From: Eledone cirrhosa
Taxonomy: Eukaryota
Reading direction: 5' to 3'
NCBI GenBank assembly: GCA_964016885.1
Contig: OZ024744.1
Location: forward strand, 63,488,001 to 63,552,000
Length of the DNA stretch: 64,000 nucleotides
Shown here: one piece after another, positions 4,452-60,389 of the stretch
Position numbering within the stretch: position 1 is the stretch's first letter
Layout: every line of letters begins with the position of its first letter
Made by a program: the position numbers and the translations under genes
Notes under the pieces: model-generated
The model's input: the letters and a program-made list of their open reading frames with translations, nothing else
The model's database searches: none
Told to the model about the DNA's origin: nothing

Positions 4452-5460
4452 TAATGATAACAGAGGCCCTTACCACACTAGAAATAACAACAAAAAGCAT
4501 TGTAATTGCTGAAACCCTAACTGTCCACTCCAAGGCCACTGCCTGATTAAAAATGTAATCTACAAATGCACAGTGACCACCAGCAAGTCTTATTTAGGCG
4601 CCACTTCTAAAGAGTTCAAGACTAGATTTAGATCGCATCTCCACTCTTTTAGAAATAAGAAACTCAGGTTCTCTACCTCCCTTGCTAGTTTTATCACACA
4701 ATTAATGGAATCTAACATTAGCTATGCTACCCAATGGAATATAGTAGATCGAGCAACACCTTACAACTTGAGGAAGAATTGTCAGCTATGCCTAATGGAA
4801 ACTTATTATATAGTAAGCTCACCCCACACACTTATTAATAGTAGAGCTGAGACTGTAATGGATTGTAACCACAGACTACAACATTCATACTATAACTGGT
4901 CTCTGGACCAAGGGAAACTTTCAGTCTCGACAGCTGCCTACATTACACCACCATTAAGTACTTCCTATAATAGTTCAGCTTAAGTACAATATTTAATTAC
5001 GCTCTTAACTAGCCACCTAACATTTGCCTAAGCACTATCCAACACCTACTGAATTAAACCCACTCTGCCAAATCATCCCTTTAGTTGGTATGTATAATAT
5101 ATTCTAGGAGTGCTTTTCTACATTTTCACCGTACAGTTACCTCCCTTGGGGATTATGCCCCTTTCATAGTCGCCATTATTATTGTTTATGTGAATAGTAT
5201 ATCTACTGTGAATAGTTTCAACCATATTGGACGGTATATTTATTGACAGACATTATATTAACAAACACATTTCTCTGAAGAGCCTGCATTATTCTTTAAT
5301 GCAGGTGAAATAGTATGTAAGAATTGTATAAAGAACTTGTTATAATGGCTAGTAACTCCTTCATTTATTCACTTGCTTATATATATATATTTCTCTCTTT
5401 TTTTTCTCCAAAATGGCTGACTAAATACACACATGTTTTTCTCAAAAAATGTTTTTTTGC
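4452..5460 (+). mobile_element. 5'-truncated Penelope-like element (Naiad-like GIY-YIG end + 3' pLTR)
   Basis: HCNC..NCPL..CL linker then VIY..YLG..FKTR..H..SF and CQLC..E; hammerhead at 5271. Confidence 0.8.
5271..5323 (+). ncRNA. Minimal type I hammerhead ribozyme (PLE pLTR)
   Basis: TTCT-CTGAAGA-G-CCTGCATTA/TAATGCAGG-T-GAAA-..GTA-AGAA; stems I and II pair. Confidence 0.75.
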
Positions 5461-13005: not shown

Positions 13006-13420
13006 CATACAGAAATACAAATATACCACACATGCAGATATTGATAAACACATACAGTCACACCAAACAAAAAACTTTGGGGAGAAACAAAATATAAAGA
13101 CACAGAGACACATACATGCATACACATGTTAAACAAAGAAACTTACAGAAATATCAGCATACAAAGACACATACACATGCAGACCTCAAAATGTAAATAA
13201 AAGAAAAATCAAAATGTAGAGGAGACAGAATAGTCATTGAGAAGGTTACAGAATGTGTGACAAAAGAGCTTTGACAATTAAACAAGGAATGGATTAGTTA
13301 TCTGACTAATACTTTACTACATGATGTATATCTGTACCTTTCCCTTATATATACAATGTGTATACAGGATATCTGTATATAAAGGCCAAGGAAAACAATG
13401 TTCAATCTAGTACAAGAGAG

Positions 13421-13650
13421 CTTATTTAGTTTATGTTAAATTTCATACACGTAACATGTATGTGTGACCTTAGGTTTCATGTTCCAGTTATTGTGGAGGA
13501 GCCATTAAAAAACTGGACAAAATTTTAAAGAGTGAGGCCAGTTTTAGAACGGCTCCTCCACTATACAGTGGTGGTCATGACTGGATCTCAAAACCTAAGG
13601 TGGTACATACATGTTAAGTGTATGAAATTTAATATAAACTAAGTGGATAT
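13421..13650. repeat. Diverged fold-back element with hammerhead remnant
   Basis: Arms 13421-13516 and 13538-13650 are inverted; left arm minus strand reads AACTGG..GAAA-CCTAAGG-TC. Confidence 0.7.
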
Positions 13651-17228: not shown

Positions 17229-17315
17229 ATATATAGTTGTTGAATGGTTGCAATAAATGCGTCCGTAAGCGGTATGCCATTTTAGCACTCGATGTTCGCG
17301 CAGAGCAGAGTATAT

Positions 17316-17494
17316 TATTATAGATAACGAGGAATCAGTGATGCATCAAAACATTTATCTATTAACATATTACATATGTTTCTCCGACGATCAGTTCAAG
17401 GCAGGATCTGAAACAGAGCTGATCGTCAGAGAAACATATGTAATATGTTAATAAATTGTTTTGATGCATCACTGATTCCTCGTTATCTATAATA
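17316..17494. repeat. Fold-back element pivoting just 5' of a hammerhead GAAA
   Basis: Arms 17316-17397 and 17416-17494; right arm reads GAAA-CATATG-TA. Confidence 0.85.
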
Positions 17495-17503
17495 TATATA
17501 TAT

Positions 17504-17694
17504 AACAAAGGAGGTGTGGTAAGGAACCAGATGGACCATAACACACCAGAGTACTCAATACTTAGGGTAGTAGAGTGGGTAATAGGAAAGAGTTTAACCC
17601 TGACGGCAGAGCTCAAGCCGTTTCGACGGCTATTTCTGGACTCAGAGTCCAGAAATAGTCGTCAAAACGGCTTGAGCTCTGGGTTAAACCTATT
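17504..17694. repeat. PLE-end fold-back centred on hammerhead helix II; family shared with 43945-44142
   Basis: Palindrome centred at 17644; minus strand reads ..GCCGTC-GAAA-CGGC-loop-GCCG-TC. Confidence 0.85.
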
Positions 17695-19030
17695 CATCAT
17701 CATAATCATCATCATCATTTTACGTCCACTTTTCCCTGCTTGCAAGGGTGGGACGGGTCTTATTCAGCACAGCATCTCTCCACTTGTCACGGTCCCTCGT
17801 CATCTCCACCGTGAGCTTCAGCAATCTGAGGTCTGTTCTCACCACCTCCGCCCATGTTTTTCGTGGTCTACCTCTACCACGTCTTCCTTCAACTGACATT
17901 TCCTTGCACTTCTTCACCCATCGGTCATCTTCCATGTGCAACACATGTCCATACCACCTCAGTCTCCTCTCCCATACACTACATTCTATCCCTCTCAGAC
18001 AGTTTCTCTCTCAACACATCCATGTTGGGTCGTTCACGCACATTTACACTGCACATCCAACGGAGCATGCTTGCCTCATTTCTCTCCAGCCGTCGCATAT
18101 CCTCTGCAGTTGCTGCCCAAGTCTCACTACCATGCAGCATCGCGCACCTCAGCCAGGCATCATATAACCGGCCTTTCATATGCAGGGAGAAACCCTTCTT
18201 AGTCAGCAGAGGAAGCAGCTCCCTAAACTTCTTCCAACCCATCCTTATTCTAGATACTATGGCCTCGGAACCCCCCCCCCCCCCCTCCCATGCTTATCTG
18301 ATCACCTAGGTACCAGAAGCTATCCACCACTTCTATAGCTCCCGCCTGCATTTGAAAAATGTGTCTATCAATGCGACTTCTACTGTCTAATTTCCCTGTA
18401 CATCTACTGCATACGTATTTCTCACTACCTGTTAGTTTACCTGCTATCCCACTACATCTTTTGTGTACCCAGGATCTGCATTGTGTGTATTTTATAGAGA
18501 ATTTATGCCAGTTCCTTTTCTGCATATCGAACATGGCCATTTCCCTGACGGAATCAGAGTTTTGTCCTCTTTTCTACTCATCAACACTTTTGTCTTAGAT
18601 AAGTTCACTCTCAGTCCTCTTGCTTCCAACTGCTGTTTCCATAGCCAGAATTTATTCTCTAGCTCCTCTACTGATTCTGCTATAAGAACCAGATCGTCAA
18701 CATAGAGAAGTTCCCATGGACAGCCAGTCTTAAACTCCTCTGTTATGGCTTGGGGGACTATAATGAACAAGAACAGGCTGAGGACCGAACTTTGATGTAC
18801 TCCTACTTGTATCTGGAATTCCTCACTAAACTCCATTCCTACCCTGACTTTACTGACAGCACCTCTGTACAAAGTTTGCACTGTCCTCACAAGCCATTCC
18901 TCAACACCTAGTTTTCTTAGGGACCACCAGATGACTGATCGGGGTACCCTATCAAAGACCTTCTCTAGGTCAACAAAGGCTAAGTATAGTGGCTTATTCT
19001 TCTCTAAGAATCTCTCTGAAGGGATCAGGG
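17695..19030 (-). mobile_element. RTE-family LINE with PHD-like finger inside RT (pseudogenised)
   Basis: AFVDLEKVFD, GVHQ, LLYVDD, CSIC..QC..HKRC..CSRC, FWYLG, HGSETW; highly similar to 39753-40870. Confidence 0.9.
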
Positions 19031-19429
19031 TCCTGTCTTCTGTCCTTCTTTGCCAACTTATTTCTAGGAGCGTCATGGGGGCAGAGTCCTCAAGCATTCA
19101 GCTACCAGCCCACGCCAAAGAGGGTAAACTGTCAAAGTATTGGCCGTTCTCTGATTAGTTTGTGGTTGAGTTTAAAGCAGTGGAAACTCCCAGCATTCTT
19201 GGCTTTTGAACATCTCTGCTCCCTGCTATCAGAGTGGAGTTGGCTGCCCACAGGTGCAAACTCCACGAGATGAAGTGGCTGTTCCACCGCATCACCCTCG
19301 CTGTCCTCTGGGATAATGTCCTGTTAACCAGGACCATGAGGTGGATGACATATCAGGGCAGGAGTAGGGTGGCAGTCTTCAGGCGAAAGGGTTAATAATG
19401 CTGATGCAGTCACATACACTAGCTTAAAC

Positions 19430-23811: not shown

Positions 23812-24318
23812 TCACGGCGATAATCGGCCTGGTGTGATGGGCAAAGATATGTCTTGGTCAATTTTAATAACGAGTTCTTTTAATTCTTGTAGTTCCCTTT
23901 CTGTATGCTCATACTTGTGAGCTACAAGACGCTTGTAGAAGTGAATTCCAAAAATAATGAACAGAATCAAAACTGGAATGACAAGAGCAGTTGAAGCCAT
24001 TGCTGCATTGAAACTAACTTTGTAGAATTTAACCCAAGATAATATTGCAATTTCAACGAGAAATAGCAAAGTTCCGAGACCTGTGGAGAATCCCCAAGCC
24101 ATTTCTATATACCATCGCATCTTTTCATGTGGGGATTCTTTCACAGCAGAGAAAGAATTCATGTTACTCACAGCCTCGATATTAGGGAGTATGCATGTAC
24201 TTATCATCAAAGCTATTAAATGCACAGAAACAAGTAATGTTGTGCAGACACTAAACGCCACTAAAAGACAGTCTGGTAATGGATTATTTTCTTCAAATTG
24301 AATTTCTACCATAGCAAC
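23812..24318 (-). CDS. Orai: Calcium release-activated calcium channel protein Orai, exon 2 (TM1 end to C-terminus)
   Basis: TTTTTCAG acceptor at 24319-24321 then VAMVEIQ, CTTLLVSVHLIALMISTCILPNIEAVSN, ESPHE, AWGFSTGLGTLLFLVE, WVKF, HFY and a C-terminal coiled coil; TGA at 23812. Confidence 0.97.
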   Translation of the reverse strand, partial: VAMVEIQFEENNPLPDCLLVAFSVCTTLLVSVHLIALMISTCILPNIEAVSNMNSFSAVKESPHEKMRWYIEMAWGFSTGLGTLLFLVEIAILSWVKFYKVSFNAAMASTALVIPVLILFIIFGIHFYKRLVAHKYEHTERELQELKELVIKIDQDISLPITPGRLSP

Positions 24319-25385: not shown

Positions 25386-26362
25386 AATAGATAGATACAT
25401 AGGTAGGTTGCTATAGGTAGCTGCAGTATGACCATTGAATATATTGCCAAAACTGTTGTGTGTATGTGAGAGAGGGAGGAGGCGTAGGCGTATGTAGGGA
25501 TGTAGATATCAAATTGCCATTTTCCTATCAAAGTTAGCACAAAGTGGTTGTCACTTGATACTTGCGTTTTCTTATAAAGATTATTAAATGTTTCCGACCG
25601 GATTTCTAAATATTAGAAAAATTATTTTTCTCCGTGTTTCATTTATTTGCCAGAATAACAAAGAATATAAAACAAGTTTACAAGGAGAAAATAAAATATT
25701 TATAGAATTAAATCAATTTTTTTTAGGTAAATTTATTTTTAAAAAAAGAAAAAAAAAAACCCCTCTCGATTCCAGTGGGAAATAATTATTTTATCTCGGT
25801 TTCTTCGTGCTATCAACTAATTTCACCTTCGAACATACCGCGATTGACTTTTTCCCCGGAACACAGAGGGGGATTGGGGAGGGAGGGACGTCAGACTTTA
25901 CTCCCACTCACGGAATTTTCTTTACCATTTTTTAAAGCTTTGTACATAAAAGGATGGGGAAGACCCTCGGAGTTTCGCAGATCTACACCCCACTCGCGTT
26001 TTTTCGTTTGTTTTTGTTTTTTCGCGAGTTATTGATGAAGATAACCTGACCCTTAAACTTAACCCTTTCGACATTACACATGGAGAAAAAAGGTAAAGAA
26101 AACTCCAAGGGTGGGAGGAAAGTACTTACCTGAAAAACGTAATTAATGGTTGAGTACATAATAATAATTGTGTAATAATTATAGTCATATTAATATTAAA
26201 AATATACATTAACTAATATTTTTATTAGTTAAGTAATATATATATATATGTGTGTGTGAATATATATATATATCATCACCGTTTTACGTCCATTCTTCCA
26301 CAATAGCATGGGTTAGACGGGTTGTCCTGTTGTGGGCAATGCCAGGTATAGATATATATATA

Positions 26363-26495
26363 AAGTCCCAGGTTCAATCGGATGTAACCACAGTAAGGTA
26401 CTCAATTGATTTGTAAAATGTAAACAATAATTTAATATAGAAATGGCTTCTACGGGACTAGAACTGTCTGTTCCATTCAAAGGAAATCATAGGGA
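26363..26495 (-). mobile_element. Diverged fragment of the Naiad pLTR (family of 43128-43660 and 56570-56945) in Orai intron
   Basis: GGTTCAAT..GTAACCAC.GTAAGGTACTCAAT..CTAC.GGACTAGAACTGT matches 43135-43250. Confidence 0.65.
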
Positions 26496-26882
26496 GCAAC
26501 TCAATATTACTTTTATAGTTCTAGGGTCAATAAAATTAAGCATCAAGTCAAATACTTGAATAGATATCAACATTCCCCTCTCCCAAATGAGTCGTCTTGT
26601 GTCTAATGTAGAAATCATTATTGTTATTAAAAGTCGATAAAATAAAGCACAAGTAATGCACTGAAGTCTATTTAGTCGACCCACCCCCCCCTTCAAATTA
26701 CTGGCCTTGTGCCTAAAGTAGAAATCGTTATTATTATTACTACTACACACTATAGAGCAACAATTAAATAATTCTATTACAATTATTACTCCATCTACAT
26801 TTGAGTACATATTCAGGATAAAACGTTCTATTTGTAAAATATACATATTATCATTTACACACTTATAGAAAAATAAACATAC

Positions 26883-27038
26883 CATTGCGAATCCTGATAA
26901 AAGTGCTGATGTACGGCTGGAAGCTTTCAATTTAGCGCGACCGAGATAAAGCTTTCTCCACGATAAAACACTGGATGAGGTCTCGTTTGTCATTGGCGGA
27001 AGGTGAATTTTAGGTACATTACTCGGTTGGGGATTCAT
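26883..27038 (-). CDS. Orai: Orai exon 1 (ATG at 27038; ETON region and TM1)
   Basis: [28 protein letters not shown] followed by GTATGT donor at 26882; phase-0 splice gives FAM|VAMVE and about 220 aa; an upstream exon cannot be excluded. Confidence 0.93.
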
Positions 27039-27459
27039 TGTCAAAACAAAAAATTAATTTTGAAGGTTTAAAGTATGGACTATCGAGTATAATTATAGAA
27101 ATAAATCTAAAGATAATACCAATGCTACGGTATAAAGGTGGACTAACTACTCAATTCACTCATAAATAGTTACATTTTAATACGAGATAATTATTTTACG
27201 TCTTCATAATTTCGAAAGATATCCCCATAAAAAGAAAGTTTGAGGTGTGTCACAAACGGTGAAGCTTCCTGTAAAATACGGTGATGACACAACACTTGTA
27301 TACATAAAATGGAAACGTTTGTTGACTGTCAGTTTAACCTATGAAGCTGTGTCGTAGTACATACTCTGTGCCGGCTGCTGTGTTCATAATCAAGACATGC
27401 AACTCTCGTTCGCTCAGTTAGTTTAACTGTCAGCAATGTATTATTTAATAAGCGTAGGT

Positions 27460-27935: not shown

Positions 27936-28399
27936 AGGGGTTCTCCTACATGGATATTAAGTAGTGGCCGTACTCGAAAACGAGTTGGCAACCACCATGT
28001 ATGTATGTATAATTACAACAGTTACATAAACAGGTACGCAAGTTTCGTTGGGTTCTGGGCCCCAGCCTGTCATGAGAAAAAATAAATGAGTATTTATACT
28101 AAACTCGTCCTATGGACTGAGTGCTCTTACTCTTGGATATTTCCTCTTAACTTTTTCTTCAGTATATATGTTGTAGTGCACCTGAGCACTGTACACAATA
28201 ATTTCATTATTATTATTATATATATATAAGAGAGGGGAGGGGGACTAGCGCTAGTAGATCATTAATCAACTAAGTATTCTATACTTGAGTGTAGATATAA
28301 TTACAGGGATGTTTTGCCCAACGACTGAGCTTAAACTATTTCGATATTCAACCAGTTAAAGCTAAGTCATCAGGAAAAATAAAATCCCTATAACAATAA

Positions 28400-32575: not shown

Positions 32576-33509
32576 TATGTTAGTTGTCATCATCGTCATC
32601 CATTTTTCCATGAGTTGGATAGGTCTTTTCCAACACAGCTTCCCTCTATTTACTGCATTCCTTTGTGAAGTTCAGCATCTTGAGATCTGCTCATACTACT
32701 TCATAGGTTAAATTTGATTGTTTTTTGTTTGTGTGTTACTTGATATTAATCAAAACAGTTTCCTTCAAAGCTATTGTTATGGTACTAAGACAGGCAAAGC
32801 AAGCTGGACCATCAGGAGATTGCCCAGATGCTAAAATCATCTGGGATGGTGGGTCATACCATAACCACATAAAGTAATATAAATAAAGTAATATAAAATC
32901 ATGTCATACATGATGGCTGGAGTAGCAACATCATCACCTGCTACAACGGCAAAGGAATTGCACATCTCCCACTCCACAATCTGGTAGACTAAGGGTAGAT
33001 GAGTGGCTTGTGTGAGCAATACAAGCCATATGCAGAAGAGCAGTCAGCATGATTAGAATTAACAATGGTTATAGTGAGGAATTAAGTGTGGAAGTGGAGA
33101 CGCGATGTTCAGTCCTAGTAATATCTATCGTCATTGTTAAAAATTAATTCACACCACGAGGTATGGATTGGCTACTTCTCAGAACATGACAGATATAAAG
33201 GTATTCTGTACTTTATTGGAACTTATAATAAAACAATTTCCTCTGATGATTAGTTTCGCGTCTTCCAGAGTCATACCAAAATTGATAGTTGGTAATCGAT
33301 AATCAATTGCTTAAATTGAATTTCACTGTGGTTTTATGAACTATGTAAGGAAAATAATAACTTTTCCACCAATATGGTATATGGCTATATACATATATTT
33401 TTAGTTTGAGTTATTGATGCTCTGGACAAATGACCATTGAGCATTTCTGCTGAGAAGCATATTTATCATACATATTACATATGTTATGATACTTTAAATT
33501 AGTGTATAA

Positions 33510-34384: not shown

Positions 34385-34520
34385 AGATTGTGGATTTATG
34401 ATTTTCAGCCAGAGACGAATGACGCAGTGTGTTGCTACACTGCCTCATCGACTCAGAGATGATGAGGTAGTGTAGTGGCACACTGCTTCGTTTGTCTCTG
34501 GGTCAAAATTATAAACACAC
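34385..34520. repeat. Diverged fold-back element
   Basis: CCAGAGAC..GCAGTGTG..CTACACTGCCTCATC vs GATGAGGTAGTGTAG..CACACTGC..GTCTCTGG. Confidence 0.65.
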
Positions 34521-34629
34521 AAGTTGCATAACATTGAGTGCTGTTCTCTTATTACACCAGGATTAACATTGCAGAAGGACCTATTCTATCCAGTGGTAAA
34601 CCACCAAATTTAAACGTATATATATATAT

Positions 34630-35747: not shown

Positions 35748-36250
35748 AAGTATGTATACGTACATACATATATGTATACAGACGTACAGTAGTATATATA
35801 TATACATACATGCACACATATGGATTCACCGAACATTTATTATAATGCTCGGTGTGTTTGTAAACAAACATCCCGAATTAAGCCGTACAGTGTCTAGCAA
35901 CCATCGTTTAACTAACTCGATATGCAAATTAGGCTGCTCAGCCGTTAATATGCATTAGGAAAGTATATACTTTCAGACGTTCAATCATCTGGCAGGAAGG
36001 TATACGTTGCTGACGATAGCTAATAAGCTTGAAACTAGGCCAGCGTTCCTTTGTCAGTGTTGAACAAATGAGCAACGATGGTTGCTAGACGCTGTATGGC
36101 TTAATTCGGGATGTTTGTTTACAAACACACCGAGCATTATAATAAATGTTTGGTGAATCCATACGTACATATATATATATGTGTGCATGTATATATATAT
36201 ACATACTACTGTACGTCTGTATACATATATGTATGTACGTATACATACTT
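35748..36250. repeat. Fold-back element with a hammerhead in the spacer
   Basis: Arms 35748-35909 and 36074-36250; CGTTG-CTGACGA-T-AGCT/AGCT-T-GAAA-CTAG-GC-CAGCG at 36005-36045. Confidence 0.85.
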
Positions 36251-36973: not shown

Positions 36974-37211
36974 ACATATATACATATATATATATATACA
37001 CACACATATTTTTGTGTATATGTATGTATACATACATATGTGTGTGTACGTATTTAAATCTATATATACACACATATATATCTAAGTCCAAAATTAAGAT
37101 AAAATGAATTAAATGAATTTAATCTAAATCGAAATCATGGGTGTCATGACATAATGCATGCGCCATATATCCTGGGAATTTAAGCTCAAAGATAAATAAA
37201 TCCGAGCATAT

Positions 37212-37450
37212 TATAATAACTAGAGATTGATTAACATATAAATATACATGAATAATCACAGGAGATAAATTTTTGCTCGCGTGTAACCACGCATAGCTAG
37301 TATAGGTAATATTTACCTTTAAGAGTGATTAACCTTTCCTTGTATATATCCCATTAAAGAAATATATTTCACCAATTAATCAGTTATTTCACCAGTTATC
37401 TCCTGTGATTATTCATGTATATTTATATGTTAATCAATCCCTAGTTATTA
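37212..37450. repeat. Inverted repeat (about 55-bp arms)
   Basis: ATAATAACTAG.GATTGATTAACATATAAATATACATGAATAATCACAGGAGATAA and its reverse complement. Confidence 0.8.
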
Positions 37451-37830
37451 TACACACATATATATATATGACATACACATATATATACTTGTATATAAGC
37501 TGAGAATTATGTGACAAAAAAATATCGACGAAGGGTAAGGGTTGCTTATATTCAAGGTTAATTTCTTGCTGGACTTTTTGGCAACTAAATACCAGTTATT
37601 TAAGTGGGATTTAGGAGGAGGACACACGAAATTCTCCATGTATTACCTGGCTAGTAGTAGTGTCTGTTTTGTTATATAAGTGTGTTTTTTTTAATTTATT
37701 TTACTTTTTCTTTTTCTTTTTTTATTGTCTTTGTAGTAAAAATGTTTTTGTTTTTTAAAAATACCTCCACCTCGTGTGTATATATGTATGTGTATCTCTC
37801 TTTCTCTTTCTCTGTGGTGTATATATATAT

Positions 37831-39752: not shown

Positions 39753-40870
39753 AATTCCAGATACAAGTAGGAGTACATCAGGGTTCGGTCCTCAGCCCGC
39801 TCTTGTTCATTATAGTCCTCCAAGCCATAACAGAGGAGTTTAAGACTGGCTGTCCATGGGAACTTCTCTATGCTGACGATCTGGTTCTTATAGCAGAATC
39901 AGTAGAGGAGCTAGAGAATAAATACTGGCTATGGAAACAGCAGTTGGAAGCAAGAGGACTGAGAGTAAATCTAGCTAAGACAAAAGTGTTGATGAGTAGA
40001 AAAGAGAACAAAACCCTGATTCCGTCAGGGAAATGGCCATGTTTGATATGCAGAAAAGGAACTGGCATAAATTCTATAAAATGCACACAATGCAGATCTT
40101 GGGTACACAAGAGATGTAGCGGGATAGCAGGCAAACTAACAGGTAGGGAGAAATATGTATGCAGTAGATGTACAGGGAAATTAGACAGTAGAAGTGGCAT
40201 TGATAGACACATTTTTCAAATGCAGGAGGGCGCTATAGAAGTGGTGGATAGCTTCCGGTACCTAGGAGATCAGATTAGCATGGGAGGAGGGTGTTCCGAG
40301 GCCATAGTATCTAGAATAAGGACGGGTTGGAAGAAGTTTAGGGAGCTGCTTCCTCTGTTGACGAAGAAGGGTTTCTCCCTGCGTACGAAAGGCCGGTTGA
40401 ATGATGCCTGTGTGAGGAGCGCGATGCTGCATGGTAGTGAGACATGGACAGTAACTGCAGAGGACATGCGACGGCTGGAGAGAAATGAGGCAAGCATGCT
40501 CCGTTGGATGTGCAGTGTAAATGTGCGTGAACGACCCAGCATGAATGTGTTGAGAGAGGAACTGTGCCTGAGAGGGATAGAATGTAGTGTACGGGAGAGG
40601 AGACTGAGGTGGTATGGACATGTGATGTGCATGGAGGATGACCAATGGGTGAAGAAGTGCCAGGAATTGCCAGTTGAAGGAAGACGTGGTAGAGGTAGAC
40701 CACGAAAAACATGGTCGGAGGTGGTGAGAACAGACCTCAGATCATTGAAGCTCACGGTGGAGATGACGAGGGACCGTTACGAGTGGAGAGATGCTGTGCT
40801 GAATAAGACCCGTCCCACCCTTGCAAGCAGGGAAAAGCAGACGTAAAATGATGATGATGATCATGATGAT
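39753..40870 (+). mobile_element. Young 5'-truncated RTE with PHD-like finger; open ORF 39803-40846
   Basis: GVHQG, LLYADD, C4HC3 insert, FRYLG, HGSETW, RGRGRPRKTW; (GAT)n tail. Confidence 0.92.
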
Positions 40871-43086: not shown

Positions 43087-43126
<40 letters not shown>

Positions 43127-43127
43127 G

Positions 43128-43671
43128 TTTTTCCGGGTTCAATAGGGAGTAACCACGGTAAGTAAGGTACTCAATACATAGCAGAGTATAAATATTTAAT
43201 ATAGAAAAGCATCTACAGGACTAGAACTGTTTCATTCGTGAGAAATCATCAGGAAGCTGACTGTCCAAGTAAATATGGTGGTATTTATATCTTTTCTAGT
43301 GGTAGGAGAGGGTGGGGATTGGGATAGGTGGTGGTCATTGGTTGATGGGTTTAAAGAAAAGGGAATTCTTTAAAAGCTAATTCTTTAAAGCTATAATTTA
43401 TATTTAAAGTGACAAAGGCAGAAAGAGTACTATAAACAAGTTCAGATTGAAGTACCACTCTTTATTTTTAAGTTTCTCTTAAGCTAACAATGCCTCTATT
43501 TCAAGTGTGTACAGGATGGGTGGAGGTGATTGGTTTAAAGAAAGGGGAATTCTTTAAAAGCTAATTCTTTAAAGCTGTATTTACAGTGACAAAGGCAGAA
43601 AGAATTCAATTTGCGGGTGCTTCTCCTTGTTAATTTCTCTTAAGTTATATTTCAGGTGTCTACAAGCACAT

Positions 43672-43707
<36 letters not shown>

Positions 43708-44705
43708 CACACATTCATACACATATATATACATATACACACACCTACACTTAAAAGCATATATGCATATATGTACACATACATATATACATATATAGAT
43801 ATATATACACATATATATACATATACCCATATACATACATACATATACAAATATACACGCATATATGCATATATACACATATATACACACACGCACACAC
43901 ACACACACACACATATATATATACATATACATATATATATATATATAACGAAGGAAATGTGGTAAGGAACCAGATGGACCATAACGCACCAAACTACTCA
44001 ATACTTAGGGTAGTAGAGTGGGTAATAGGAACGAGTAGGACCCCGACGGCTGAGCTCAAGCCGTTTCGACGGCTAATTCAGTCCAGAATTAGCCGTCGAA
44101 ACGGCTTGAGCTCAGCCGTCGGGGTTCTACTCGTTCCTATATATATATAAACATATATATATATATACAAGTGGAAGCTTAGTAAAATCGAAGCTTTGGC
44201 TGCGGCCAAGCAAAGTCGACCTACAATAAGGAATGAGTAGCAAAGCACTCAATAAGGGAAGGTGTTCAGAGTAAGAACATTACGTTTAGATAGTTTGACA
44301 AATTGAAAATTGCGGCAGGCAAAACCCAGCCATACAATACCAAAACAACGAAAACACTATTCAGGTTAGACAATACATGTATATGTATATATACCCACAA
44401 ACATACATAAATACACATACATGCACATACATGTATATACATGCACATACATGCACATGCATGCATACATTACACATATACATATACATATATATATATA
44501 CATATATATATATATATTAATAAAAGGAATTCCAACTTTGTCTGATTTACTCATTTTATTTACAATCCTTTAAAATTATAAAGATATTATAATGAAATAT
44601 TTTGGTAGAATATTAAGTGTTAAATGTTAAATGAACAAGTACTTTCATGCTTTCGCAATATTCAGGTTCATATTCAGTGGTGACAGTCAAGTTTGCAATT
44701 TTCGA

Positions 44706-44832: not shown

Positions 44833-47245
44833 AACATATACATACATATACACATACATAATCATATACATACGTATACATAAACAAATACACACACATG
44901 CATATATACACATACTTATATACATGCATTCAATGAAGTACATCATATATGTGGAAAAATCAGATAGGTAAGAAGTACTTACATAACCATGGTGCCGTGT
45001 GGCGGGTCGAGATGGGGGTAGGGGTAGGGTAGAATGGAGGTGGAGGGGATATTTTGTCGAGTGGGTTTTTTTTTAAAGGAAATTTTTTTAGCCATCTGGC
45101 ATCAACACTGGCTTAAGATATTGGAAAGCTGCAAAGTTTTTGTGCATGTAATTCTGGCAGAGTTCAGAGAGTTTGTTCAGTATCGGGCCCTGGGCAAATA
45201 GTATTTCGTAGCTCTCTGAAATACAAAGGTCGCAGCACTTGTGTCGTCCCTTGTATGAGTGCGCTTTATGGAGTATTTTCCATTTAAGCGTGAAAGGGGT
45301 GGAGTTCCTTTTGAGGTCCTAGATATAGGAGGCGAGTGTTGTCTGATTTGATTTGTCTGGTCTTCTGAAAGAGTGGGTATGGGCTTACCACCGGGTCTTA
45401 AAGTTGTTGGAAGTCATTCCGATATAAGTCATTTTGTTATTGTCATCAGTGCCGGAGATGACATCACATTTGTATACGATGTAATTTGTCAGGCATTTGT
45501 TTTCAAGTGGGCAGGCTTTCTTATTTTGGCAGTTGCACAAAGCTCCCGTCCGGGGATTCGGTGCGGAGGTAGTAGGCTTAATTAATTTTGTAGTGTTGAG
45601 ATTGGCAATTTGAAGAAAGTCCTAGCTATGCCTATTCCTTCTAGGTAGTCTTGGGGTGGTTTCTAGATAAGTGATCTTTTCTTTAAATCCGCTGCGGGCG
45701 AGGGCGTCGTTGTAGTAAGAGGCAGAGGCGATAAAGATATCTTCATTGGCCGAGAGGCCGGAGATTCTGATTGAGACGCTTGTAACTAAGTTATCTGTGA
45801 TGTTTTGGGGGTGGTTAGAATTAACATTTATATATCTGAAGGACTCGTTAGGTTTGTGGTATGGGTAATAGAGGGAAGTATCTAAGTCTAGACTGACATC
45901 TAAAAAGTTGGCCCTAGTCATATTAGATTCTAAGGTTATTCTAAATCCTAGATTACGGAAGAACGAGCTTAAGTTTCTCCGAAACCCATCAGTGGTTCCG
46001 GGGTTAACCTTGTGCAAGGCGAAAAGGCCATCATCTCGGTATAATCCTCCGGTAAGGCCCGTGAAGAGGTTCTTCATGTGGTGAAAGTTGTACAGGCCCA
46101 CGAGGTCGTTAATTTCAGCCGAGTCACTTGCTCCGATGCTGACGTCAAAAGGGGTCTAAGACTTCTTGTTGATCCAGTAAGATTCCTCGTGGTGTAGAAA
46201 GGTCTTACGGGCGTGGAGTATCACATCCTGCTCAGCGTCGGTTATGGTTGTAAAATTCCTGGCAAAAGCAAGTGCGTCCTTCAGTAGGGGCTCAGAGATA
46301 GAAAGATAGAAGTCTTCTATGACGAGTTGCAGGAAGCGAGTGTGGCGTTTGTCGGCCAATTCTTAAAACCAAGAGAATGCCTCGGAAGTTCTGCTCCAGA
46401 GTGGGAGTGGTGAAGCCACCCGCACTGATGGTAGAAATCTGTCGAGGATCTTTTTGCTGATAGAGTCGATGTCCGAACGTGTGGGGTTGATAGGTCTGAC
46501 TGATGGTTTGTTGAGGAAGTTTCCCTTGTGGTCCTTCAGGGTAAAGTGCGGGGTCTTTATCCTTAAAGGTTCCGTTCGGTCGTGTAATTTAAGGGATTTG
46601 GCAATTTCTTTTCCGGCCGCATTGATCTCTGTCAATGCCATCTCATTCACCTTTTTGTAGGTAGTCGTGATAGCATTTTTGCCAGCTTATTATAGGTTGG
46701 TAGGTCTACCTCATAAACGTTTTTGGTTTTATCGGAGGAGACATGGAGATTGGGGGAAGTTTTCATTTTCCGCATTTCAGTATTTAAGTAGGCTCAGAAT
46801 GGTGTGTTGGCTCTACGAAATTTGATATCTTTGATCATCTTGAAGAGGTCTTTCTCAAATGGTTCAAGTAGGCTGTTGATGGGTGGTGCCTTATTCGTTT
46901 TGAAACCGAACTTCTTATCATTGGTAGATGCAACATCAAGGTTGTCAAAGAAGAAGGCTCTCCATCTAATTCGCTTGATGAACTCGTATGTACGTCTGAT
47001 GAGTGTTTTTAGGTAAAGTTTCCTTGAAGGGATCAGTATGTGTATATATGTATGTGTGTGTGTATTTGTTTATGCATACGTATGTATATGATTATGTATG
47101 TGTATATATGTATGTTTATGTGTATATATGTATATATATATATATTAATATATGTGTATGTATATTGTATGTATATATGTGTATATATGCATGTATGCGT
47201 GTATATTTGTATATGTATGTATGTGTATGGGTATATGTATAATGT
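43128..47245 (-). mobile_element. Naiad-like PLE (RT + GIY-YIG 45090-47033; 3' pLTR 43128-43660), with nested insertions and an inverted 5' piece
   Basis: RIRWRAFF, DKT, TLKDHK, DVSIGASDSAE, GGLYRDDG, NFLDVSL, CNC..CPL, YIG; pLTR hammerhead CTGATGA..GAAA at 43224-43255. Confidence 0.9.
43945..44142. repeat. PLE-end fold-back centred on hammerhead helix II
   Basis: Arms 44025-44079 and 44086-44140; GAATTAGCCGTC-GAAA-CGGCT-tgagctc-AGCCG-TC. Confidence 0.9.
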
Positions 47246-49811: not shown

Positions 49812-49816
<5 letters not shown>

Positions 49817-50405
49817 AAATTGAGGTTGGTAATGGCACATGGAATATATAAGAGACAGAATACTTTTTTGTGAAAAAACATAATTTTATAAGGTAAGGAA
49901 ATAATAAAGGGTATAAAAAATGACCGGTTTCGATGGGTCTGCAAAAGCCATCTTTTCAAATGTTGATTAATATTAAGAAAAATTAATAATACGAAGAGTT
50001 AAAATTTGAGACTTGAAAATTCAAGTATAAAAGTGTGTGTATATTGCCTCCACCCCCCACTGACCAGCAGCCGGCTATTGCCAAACCTGACCCCTACAAA
50101 ATAACCCACACCCCAAATAACCTCTCATTCACCACCAGAAAGGGACACAGCAGTCAACCTGTTGTTGCCACCTAGATGAAAACTGCTATGAAATGAATTT
50201 TCAAGTCTCAAATTTTAACTCTTCGTATTATTAATTTTTCTTAATATTAATCAACATTTGAAAAGATGGCTTTTGCAGACCCATCGAAACCGGTCATTTT
50301 TTATACCCTTTATTATTTCCTTACCTTATAAAATTATGTTTTTTCACAAAAAAGTATTCTGTCTCTTATATATTCCATGTGCCATTACCAACCTCAATTT
50401 TCTCT
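49812..50405. repeat. Near-perfect fold-back (about 210-bp arms) with a variant hammerhead in each arm
   Basis: Arms 49812-50023 and 50194-50405; TTGAAAA-GATGG/CCATC-GAAA-CCGG-TC at 50258-50295. Confidence 0.9.
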
Positions 50406-50531: not shown

Positions 50532-50621
<90 letters not shown>

Positions 50622-50623
50622 TG

Positions 50624-51153
50624 AATGTATGTATAGTATATTTGGTAATATACCGTATGTTTAATTAAAAACATTTTGAAGACCTTCCGCTATCATTTTA
50701 AAGTAGTGACTATGTCACTTACTTCTTTTTTCGGCAAAGAAAGGGAGAGAAGCTGACAGATTCTGTTTCACACTGTTGGTGTTCCTCAGAGCAGCGTACT
50801 TCCCGACCTCTGCCGACGAAAATTATAGAGACTGAATTCTTAGAGAATTCCAGTAATAATCAGGAACTGATTATACAGAGCGATTGCCGGTTCACCAATC
50901 AGTTCCTGATTATTACTGGAATTCTCTAAGAATCCAGCCGCTATAATTTTCGTCGGCAGAGGTCGGGAAGTACGCTGCTCTGAGGAACACCAACAGTGTG
51001 AAACAGAATATGTCAGCTTCTCTCCCTTTCTTTGCCGAAAAAAGAAGTAAGTGACATAGTCATTACTTTAAAATGATAGCGGAAGGTCTTCAAAATGTTT
51101 TTATGTTTTTAATTAAACATACGGTATATTACCAAATATACTATACATACATT
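50624..51153. repeat. Near-perfect fold-back (about 250-bp arms) with a hammerhead in each arm
   Basis: 24-nt loop at 50872-50895; GCT-CTGAGGA-ACAC/GTGT-GAAA-CAG-aat-CTG-TC-AGC (minus 50752-50792; plus 50977-51017). Confidence 0.92.
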
Positions 51154-51188
51154 TATGTATACATCGCTATTTGAGAGCACCAATCCTA

Positions 51189-51316: not shown

Positions 51317-51545
51317 TATCAATAAAAATAACAGGAGGCTGGGCTGGTGTAAATCCTTGAAACCTTTCAAGGATTTACACCAGTCCAGCCTCCCGTTATT
51401 TTTATTGATAATTAACTCCGTATTCGCGCCACCAACTACACAAACGAAGGCGGGTGAACTGCACTACGTTGAGTACTCTCCACAATATTACACCAAGATT
51501 GACCATACGGAATTCTATCCAGTGGTGAACCAACAAACCTAAAGA
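51317..51545. repeat. PLE terminus with a palindrome of about 45-bp arms (51317-51410)
   Basis: ATCAATAAAAATAAC.GGAGGCTGG.CTGGTGTAAATCCTTGAAA and its inverse; both ends related to 34195-34620. Confidence 0.7.
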
Positions 51546-56406: not shown

Positions 56407-59330
<2,924 letters not shown>

Positions 59331-59360
59331 AAAGAATAGAGGTGTAACACGCAAGTTATT

Positions 59361-60372
59361 ATATATTGGTAAACGGAATAGAAAATGCTGACAAATTGTT
59401 CACAGTTGAAAAATGGTTTAATTAGGAATAAAAGAGTATTAGTGATTGTATGGGTTAGTATTCAGTTGTGGTTTTAAGTTTTTAAGTTTTTACCGGTTGC
59501 GCATTTCTAAATGCTTTTCAAAAATAATTTTGAGATAGAGTGTCCGTGTTGTTTGCTCTGATCTGATTAGTTTTGGGAATTCTACCTGTTTTTATGTTAA
59601 AAAAAGTGGCTCCAGCGTTACTTTGGTGTTGCAAAAATTCTTGTGGTCAAAACAATTTTGATTGGTCGGTAGAGGTCATGTGAATGTAAAAAATTGATTT
59701 TGCGCCAAGACTGTTTTTATGTTAAAAAAGTGGCTCCAGCGCTACTTGGTGATTGCAAAAATTCTTGTGGTCAAAACAATTTTGATTGGTCGGTAGAGGT
59801 CATGTGAATAAAAAATTGGGTTTGCGCCATTATCACAACATCGAACACCTTACTACTACTACACACACACACACACACACATATATTTGTTGTGAAAGAG
59901 TCATTTCTCAATCTTGGCGCAAAACCAATTTTTTATTCACATGACCTCTACCGACCAATCAAAATTGTTTTGACCACAAGAATTTTTGCAAACACCAAGT
60001 AGCGCTGGAGCCACTTTTTTAACATAAAAACAGTCTTGGCGCAAAATCAATTTTTTTGCATTCACATGACCTCTACCGACCAATCAAAATTGTTTTGACC
60101 ACAAGAATTTTTGCAACACCAAAGTAACGCTGGAGCCACTTTTTTAACATAAAAACAGGTAGAATTCCCAAAACTAATCAGATCAGAGCAAACAACACGG
60201 ACACTCTTTCTCAAAATTATTTTTGAAAAGCATTTAGAAATGCGCAACGGTAAAAACTTAAAAACTTAAAACCACAACTGAATACTAACCCATACAATCA
60301 CTAATACTCTTTTATTCCTTTTTTCAACTGTGAACAATTTGTCAGCATTTTCTATTCCGTTTACCAATATAT
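59361..60372. repeat. Fold-back (about 460-bp arms, each with a roughly 120-bp tandem duplication) carrying variant hammerheads
   Basis: Arms 59361-59829 and 59915-60372; TTGAAAA-GCATTT/AAATGC-GCAA-CCGG-TA. Confidence 0.92.
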
Positions 60373-60389
60373 ATATATATATATATATA

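Follow-up and report, generated by a model that had tools for sequence, protein, structure and literature searches.

A short palindromic insertion in Eledone cirrhosa, here termed locus A (positions 17504–17694 of the 64-kb window, the whole stretch of DNA that was analysed), most likely represents the 3′ terminus of a Penelope-like element (PLE) of the Hydra clade, bearing an inverted and truncated cap. It combines the 3′ half of a hammerhead motif, an optional tail and a (TA)n target, an architecture of a kind already known for PLEs; an earlier note on this DNA had left the element class unnamed, and the structure corresponds to the known PLE arrangement of an inverted copy plus a tail. We see a slightly better than even chance that locus A arose as a very short Hydra-clade PLE insertion, in which cDNA synthesis was primed twice on (TA)n and the two cDNAs were joined within what are likely the ribozyme's helix II and loop 2. 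The mode by which PLEs make tandem and inverted insertions has been described as undefined (Craig et al., 2021, PMC8557442). Stubs such as locus A supply two measurable landmarks, a fixed outer end tied to a hairpin and an inner junction located within or close to ribozyme helices. The proposed origin would help explain inverted insertions by PLEs, and the stubs would also reclassify some MITE-looking cephalopod palindromes as retroelement products. Their value rests more on the fixed outer end, which makes an open step of transposition testable, than on the repeated pivot.

Structure and surroundings of locus A

Locus A shares its family with a second copy in the window, locus B (Table 1), to which it is 86.5% identical over 185 columns (E 2e-61). 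The unique left end common to both, previously given as 80 bp, extends over 77 nt and differs at six of these (17504–17580 in A, 43947–44023 in B), and the distance from the arm end to (TA)3 is likewise 77 nt in each. The palindrome of A has a left arm at 17581–17643 and a right arm at 17645–17694 around a 1-nt center at 17644, exactly where the earlier note had placed it, and the arms align with 48 matches, two mismatches and two gaps (6 and 7 nt) in the right arm. As RNA, the locus folds with −92.8 kcal/mol (z −11.3), which none of 200 shuffled sequences equaled. Its minus strand reads GAAA (17624–17621), then CGGC..GCCG and TC (17603–17602), as had been noted, and the locus contains no ORF. 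The inverted copy carries a CpG-type change at 17664 and the 7-nt and 6-nt deletions, and has lost the UC site.

Insertion into (TA)n is seen at the left junction of A and at both junctions of B. The right target junction of A is not visible because its right end meets the (CAT)n tail of a LINE, which we take to be RTE-like (RVT_1 at 18495–19097, E 7e-15); the RTE and SINE labels of neighboring repeats are likewise presumed. A continuation of the right arm was looked for beyond the LINE and none was found. Any target-site duplication would be masked by the microsatellite and, on the right of A, by the LINE. Exons of an Orai calcium channel lie at 23815–24312 and 26490–27044 (minus strand), the ORF of the former being 96% identical to an Octopus vulgaris protein, which marks the DNA as octopus, and A is situated about 6 kb past the 3′ coding exon.

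Table 1. Features of locus A, its family copies and a decayed PLE in the window
Feature	Positions	Strand	Basis or remarks
(TA)6 target tract	17493–17504	.	Sequence; common to A and neighboring palindrome C
Unique 77-nt 3′ extension, read as optional PLE "tail"	17504–17581	−	Putative identity, after PMC8557442 and PMC11167929
Bulged hairpin: ACTC, 4-bp inner stem, TT bulge, GAGT	17553–17576	−	Descriptor scan
Post-cleavage strand: helix I 3′ side and spacer	17582–17601	−	Inverted arm copies to its 3′ end
Hammerhead-like 3′ half: GAAA, 4-bp helix III, loop with palindromic GAGCTC, UC site	17602–17624	−	
Central stem and pivot (center 17644), read as helix II and loop 2	17625–17663	.	Putative assignment
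Inverted copy: GAAA, helix III, post-cleavage strand	17664–17694	+	
LINE 3′ part with (CAT)n tail, not part of the element	17695–18820	−	93% to 39753–40870
Locus U, third family copy, older, more distant, folded back	28228–28398	−	
Locus B, family of A	43945–44140	−	(TA)n on both sides; 6-nt center; hairpin at 44019
Decayed Hydra-type PLE	56590–59204	+	RT motifs, CxCX5C linker, C-terminal GIY-YIG; hammerhead 56824, hairpin 56889

A probable ribozyme remnant

The minus strand of A (17625–17602) retains C-GAAA, helix III and a UH cleavage site, with a G-C base pair beside GAAA, and no CUGANGA core was found 5′ of helix II in A, B or the third family copy, locus U. Locus A is thus a ribozyme remnant at most. 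The ribozyme 5′ half would not have been retained, leaving a copy unable to cleave itself as a monomer; self-cleavage is not expected without the core, and the locus is most likely an inert relic. Since the core is absent from all three family copies, the description of the fold-back as centered on helix II, put forward in the earlier note, is an interpretation. The central stem of A resembles, by eye, stem II of Hydra-1_oBim (PMC8557442 supplement). We are fairly confident, as a matter of judgement, that the motif of this family derives from a ribozyme, and slightly less so that the central stem corresponds to helix II and loop 2.

The alternative that these are palindromic MITEs or foldback DNA elements with repeated GACGGCT-type motifs, where GAAA occurs by chance, is very improbable. 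No Rfam model matched at gathering score anywhere in the window, and E-value scans gave only sub-threshold matches near A (20) and U (4), mostly to miRNA-type hairpin models and none to a hammerhead. The absence of a hammerhead match would suit such an element, as would the chance rate of the 3′-half motif (1.35 per 64 kb) and the presence of the same 6–7-nt word, of the GACGGCT type, both before GAAA and closing helix III. Against this, A is asymmetric and has no terminal inverted repeats, the palindrome being flanked by 77 unique nucleotides on a single side both here and in B; the spacing between tail hairpin and UH site is that of the Hydra PLE in the window; and the palindromic character of loop III is one reported for PLE hammerheads, along with C-GAAA and a short helix III (PMC4209133).

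Clustering of the arms and position of the pivot

In the four-way alignment of the arms of A and B, which the earlier note had proposed as a check, all four fully informative sites (17594, 17595, 17608 and 17633) cluster the arms by locus, and no site shows the left-with-left pattern that would have counted against separate folds. Distances are 0.04 within A and 0.036 within B, compared with 0.125–0.21 between loci. The statement that the diagnostic bases are mirrored in both arms holds at these four sites; of the seven differences between the left arms, two fall in the right-arm deletions of A and one (17596) is confined to the left arm of B. Among the informative sites, only 17608 lies where the sequence must be mirror-derived, and the others could reflect natural covariation in helices I and II.

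Locus U was detected at 28255–28344 by nhmmer with a model built from A and B (E 0.0016). The self-complementarity of its arms was equaled by none of 2000 shuffles, and its center, near 28346, lies about 4 nt from GAAA. Measured from the G of GAAA, the palindrome center lies at 20 nt in A and at 16 nt in B, so that the centers of the three copies are near one another without being identical: the same region recurs as pivot, as had been claimed, the exact base does not. In other families of the window the pivot lies 24 to more than 170 nt from GAAA, or there is no recognizable GAAA.

All three family copies in the window are folded back and none keeps the core; neither a CUGANGA core nor an ORF, either of which could mark a master, was found in any family copy there. 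The idea that U is an unfolded master with an intact core (28373) was rejected, as the 5′ and 3′ sides of U are mirror images across CTGATGA and no helix II forms beside that word. The apparent core is better explained by CpG decay of U's own mirror arm, for which two transitions suffice. To the eye, the published Hydra-1_Obim consensus begins (5′) with sequence similar to the mirror side of U (28367–28395) and to the post-cleavage strand of A; this likeness may be due to chance in AT-rich, self-complementary sequence.

These data bear on whether the folds are independent. An ancestral fold-back could have served as a non-autonomous master whose arms were regenerated or homogenized in each lineage, in which case the shared pivot would not be an independent replicate. 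The folded-back state of every family copy in the window, the equal tail lengths of A and B, the fact that the center of B equals that of A minus 9 nt, and the 18-bp and 38-bp palindromes at the pLTR 5′ ends of Adineta (PMC3846280) are all compatible with such inheritance. Homogenization of arms is not general, however, because the arms of the old palindromes (U and 13426) are only about 72–74% identical; in addition, the arms of A have drifted (two substitutions and two deletions), the center of U differs, and the same outer end occurs in unrelated families. We consider inheritance improbable, ranking it second among the rivals. That A and B folded separately, as had been asserted, is the likeliest reading in view of the divergence of the old arms.

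Likely affinity with Hydra-clade PLEs

The Hydra clade is defined by an ORF with RT and C-terminal GIY-YIG domains, a CxCX5C linker, and RWK and DKT motifs (PMC8557442). The decayed PLE at the right of the window (Table 1) has CxCX5C, RWR and DKT, and its GIY-YIG domain is recognized at E 3.5e-4, under the Pfam cut-off; when longer relatives of the GIY-YIG ORF were sought, a single match was obtained. An element of this type could mobilize A in trans. Further Hydra-type copies lie at 45003–47041, 43123–43486 and 26347–26497, and two copies share an end site. Helix II of the hammerhead in the window's Hydra PLE carries a U-U at its base, as in many listed Hydra ribozymes.

Like A, published Hydra-clade PLEs, which include Hydra-1_Obim from Octopus bimaculoides, target (TA)n and may carry a tail. 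They have a hammerhead near the 3′ end with a helix III of 3–4 bp, of which A shows a hammerhead-like 3′ half, and one listed family, Penelope-13_HM, has an inverted 5′-truncated copy (PMC8557442). More generally, PLEs have been described with an optional tail of 30–40 bp at one end together with an inverted 5′-truncated copy (PMC8557442), and A has both the inverted 5′-truncated copy and the one-sided tail. Unlike these elements, A is a 190-nt non-coding stub in which the inversion removes the ribozyme core, and its loop III measures 9 nt, compared with 0–3 nt in the published Hydra rows and 8 nt in the Hydra PLE of the window. The 77-nt tail of A and B, about twice the published length, counts against the assignment. 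Motif searches did not find the family of A among the published Hydra consensus sequences that were available.

A recurrent tail hairpin

A strict descriptor of the bulged hairpin gave seven matches in the window against 0.32 expected, with the reservation that it was designed on four of the seven (A, B and two PLE repeats) and that three lay outside the design set (33419, 37207 and 44272). The hairpin follows the UC site at a distance of 25 nt in A and in B, and the cut site at 26 nt in a Hydra PLE repeat (43187). On visual inspection, the same shape can be recognized in the published Hydra-2_Amil and Hydra-2_Ajap 3′ ends (PMC8557442 supplement); Hydra-1_Amil and Hydra-1_Crog show, by eye, part of the motif only, and the consensus sequences of Hydra-1_Obim and Hydra-1_Ajap end without it.

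Folding five tail hairpins together with RNAalifold gave −0.84 kcal/mol, with one of five pairs covarying, and the similarity between the A/B tail and the Hydra PLE of the window is not significant (nhmmer E 3.4–4.9; z 1.1–2.6). Nor did the 80 unique bases align significantly with any of 10 other hammerhead-plus-tail units in the window, U excepted, and a 25-nt tail motif had no match in bacterial and archaeal genomes, as expected. The hairpin is a candidate landmark for protein binding or for the start of reverse transcription. Bulged hairpins without a palindrome occur at 44161–44290 (−), directly right of the TA tract of B, and at 33419 (+) and 47339 (−).

A fixed outer end among palindromes in the window

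Nineteen candidate palindromes were inspected, of which three were dropped (microsatellite or no real arms) and 16 were tested, the ends of A being taken from its arm alignment. In six of the 16 (13426, palindrome C at 17311, A, 37212, B and 51317), the inverted arm ends 4–5 nt 5′ of an outward-facing hairpin, an offset that was not imposed, distances of 2–9 nt being permitted. The six represent five families, with arms of 46–105 nt and spacers of 1–127 nt, and tail lengths to the (TA)n junction are 41–134 nt. Random placements matched the arm-end rule in 0.24% of 20,000 cases. The corresponding binomial P of 1.5e-12, or 3e-8 without A and B, is overstated in both cases because C, 13426 and 51317 were already known when the descriptor was loosened, and only 37212 came from the strict scan; a single 64-kb window underlies all of these counts. 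In U and 34401 the hairpins are decayed and these two were scored as misses, and the other eight palindromes have no hairpin. The inner pivot varies with the family: it is no more than 25 nt away from a GAAA motif in A, B, U and C, and 49 nt away in 13426.

An inverted chimera produced during assembly or amplification is extremely improbable as the source of A. The window is rich in palindromes, and in one pair (49812–50405) the arms are identical over 212 of 212 nt, which would suit such an artefact, but the arms of A differ by transitions and two deletions, the structure is common to three diverged copies, and the arm ends track a sequence landmark.

Proposed origin by two primings

In the proposed reaction, both nicked strands of the (TA)n target would each prime a cDNA on the 3′ RNA of the element. 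Synthesis of the first cDNA would begin at the distal tail end (17504) and that of the second 4–5 nt 5′ of the bulged hairpin, which would leave the 77-nt tail on one side only, and the two would then be joined head to head in what is likely hammerhead helix II and loop 2. With one source RNA for both cDNAs, source-specific bases would appear in both arms. A precedent is provided in vitro by the Anolis Poseidon element PAc, whose protein, a predicted dimer, cuts and extends both target strands, uses uncleaved RNA and starts reverse transcription at two sites bounding the tail (PMC11167929). In PAc these start sites are near a stem-loop about 85–92 nt 3′ of the hammerhead cut site, and the far tail end of A lies at about 98 nt. 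PAc differs from A in belonging to another clade and in having start sites 30–40 nt apart, and head-to-head joining is not shown in the available portions of that report (PMC11167929).

The main rival, which we judge unlikely but not far-fetched, is snap-back of a single cDNA. Here, a cDNA running from the tail through helix II would fold on its own stem and be recopied up to the hairpin or a protein bound to it, and the product would be joined by TA microhomology. The cDNA could form a stable 3′ hairpin (the central DNA hairpin has −16.7 kcal/mol in A and −11.8 kcal/mol in B), the arms terminate at TA-containing bases, mirrored bases are accounted for, and junctions templated by cDNA are documented for R2, where, as in A, an inverted copy of the insert lies at the 5′ junction (PMC11204384, PMC11331408). 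These R2 junctions differ from A in forming a minor class in transgene insertions, and a fixed outer end is unmentioned in the available text of the two reports. The fixed arm end and the orientation of a hexamer in B together favor two primings at two defined sites over snap-back. The tail-side arm of A indicates that the RNA has AGTCCA immediately upstream of the stem, and the central hexamer of B is AGTCCA on the inverted-arm side, in the RNA sense as defined by that arm of A; this favors two primings because a single folding cDNA could not supply sense AGTCCA. The argument is only suggestive, as a 9-nt deletion from an A-like center gives an equal result. Similarly, a polymerase halted at the hairpin during snap-back would likewise yield a fixed end. 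Snap-back reconciles the centers of A and B only if A had a natural helix II of 18 bp or if a second event took place, and short Hydra 3′ ends without the hairpin have been published (Hydra-1_Obim, four copies with one end site; PMC8557442), which would fit a genuine second start site.

A double template switch with its return at helix I was weighed as well and discarded, because the mirrored sequence extends some 20 nt beyond the cut site, against 3–7 bp for most of the listed Hydra helices I (PMC8557442 supplement).

A broader version of the two-priming proposal, which we advance tentatively and rate somewhat short of an even chance, is that a conserved bulged RNA hairpin, situated 3′ of the hammerhead, sets the second RT start 4–5 nt upstream of itself in two-sided priming by Hydra-clade PLEs, the cDNAs being joined at complementary ribozyme helices. 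If so, the PLE tail would be defined in cis by this hairpin in hosts from corals to octopus, and the short palindromes would record the reaction in the genome. We found no account of a tail hairpin as arm-end landmark, or of junctions in ribozyme helices, in the literature covered, many subscription papers lying outside it.

Comparison with other retroelements

Like A, non-LTR retrozymes are short and non-coding; they are PLE-related and contain a type I hammerhead (PMC7229834; bioRxiv 10.64898/2026.07.22.740005). Retrozymes, however, are head-to-tail tandems of whole ribozymes (PMC7229834), whereas A is a solitary, head-to-head half ribozyme, and the three family copies in the window are all solitary, with neither a tandem nor a core.

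The inverted-pLTR Penelope insertions of Adineta vaga are similar to A in that the inverted pLTR is shorter than the direct one and the tail is at one end; they have a 15-bp junction overlap and palindromes at the pLTR 5′ ends (PMC3846280). They differ in belonging to the Penelope/Poseidon clade and in having target duplications of 8–10 bp, and in the text examined their junction is not tied to a ribozyme helix (PMC3846280).

Other palindromes and hammerhead-like motifs in the window

Palindrome C (17238–17500) lies directly left of A and shares its TA tract; it belongs to another family with the same architecture, comprising a 75-nt tail, a hairpin at 17306 and arms of about 88 nt. Its center is 24 nt from a GAAA-CATATG-TA motif, and the pivot may be in helix II or III. 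The palindromes at 13382–13642 and 37171–37452 have tails of 44 and 41 nt, near the classical PLE length, and arm ends 4 nt off the hairpin. Those at 51317–51545 and 34395–34620 are fold-backs with homologous tails and differing palindromic parts and pivots, the former having a 2-nt center and a 50-nt hairpin interior.

Inverted pairs that are longer and lack the tail hairpin are found at 50621–51156, 59357–60377 and 35798–36200, in addition to the identical pair mentioned above. The first of these contains a complete hammerhead motif in each arm (50789 minus, 50980 plus), and several other palindromes of the window have hammerhead-like motifs in one or both arms. Solitary hammerhead-like motifs that bear a core, all below the Rfam threshold, occur at 5275 (+), 42970 (+), 34303 (−), 39710 (−), 52459 (+) and 36010 (+).
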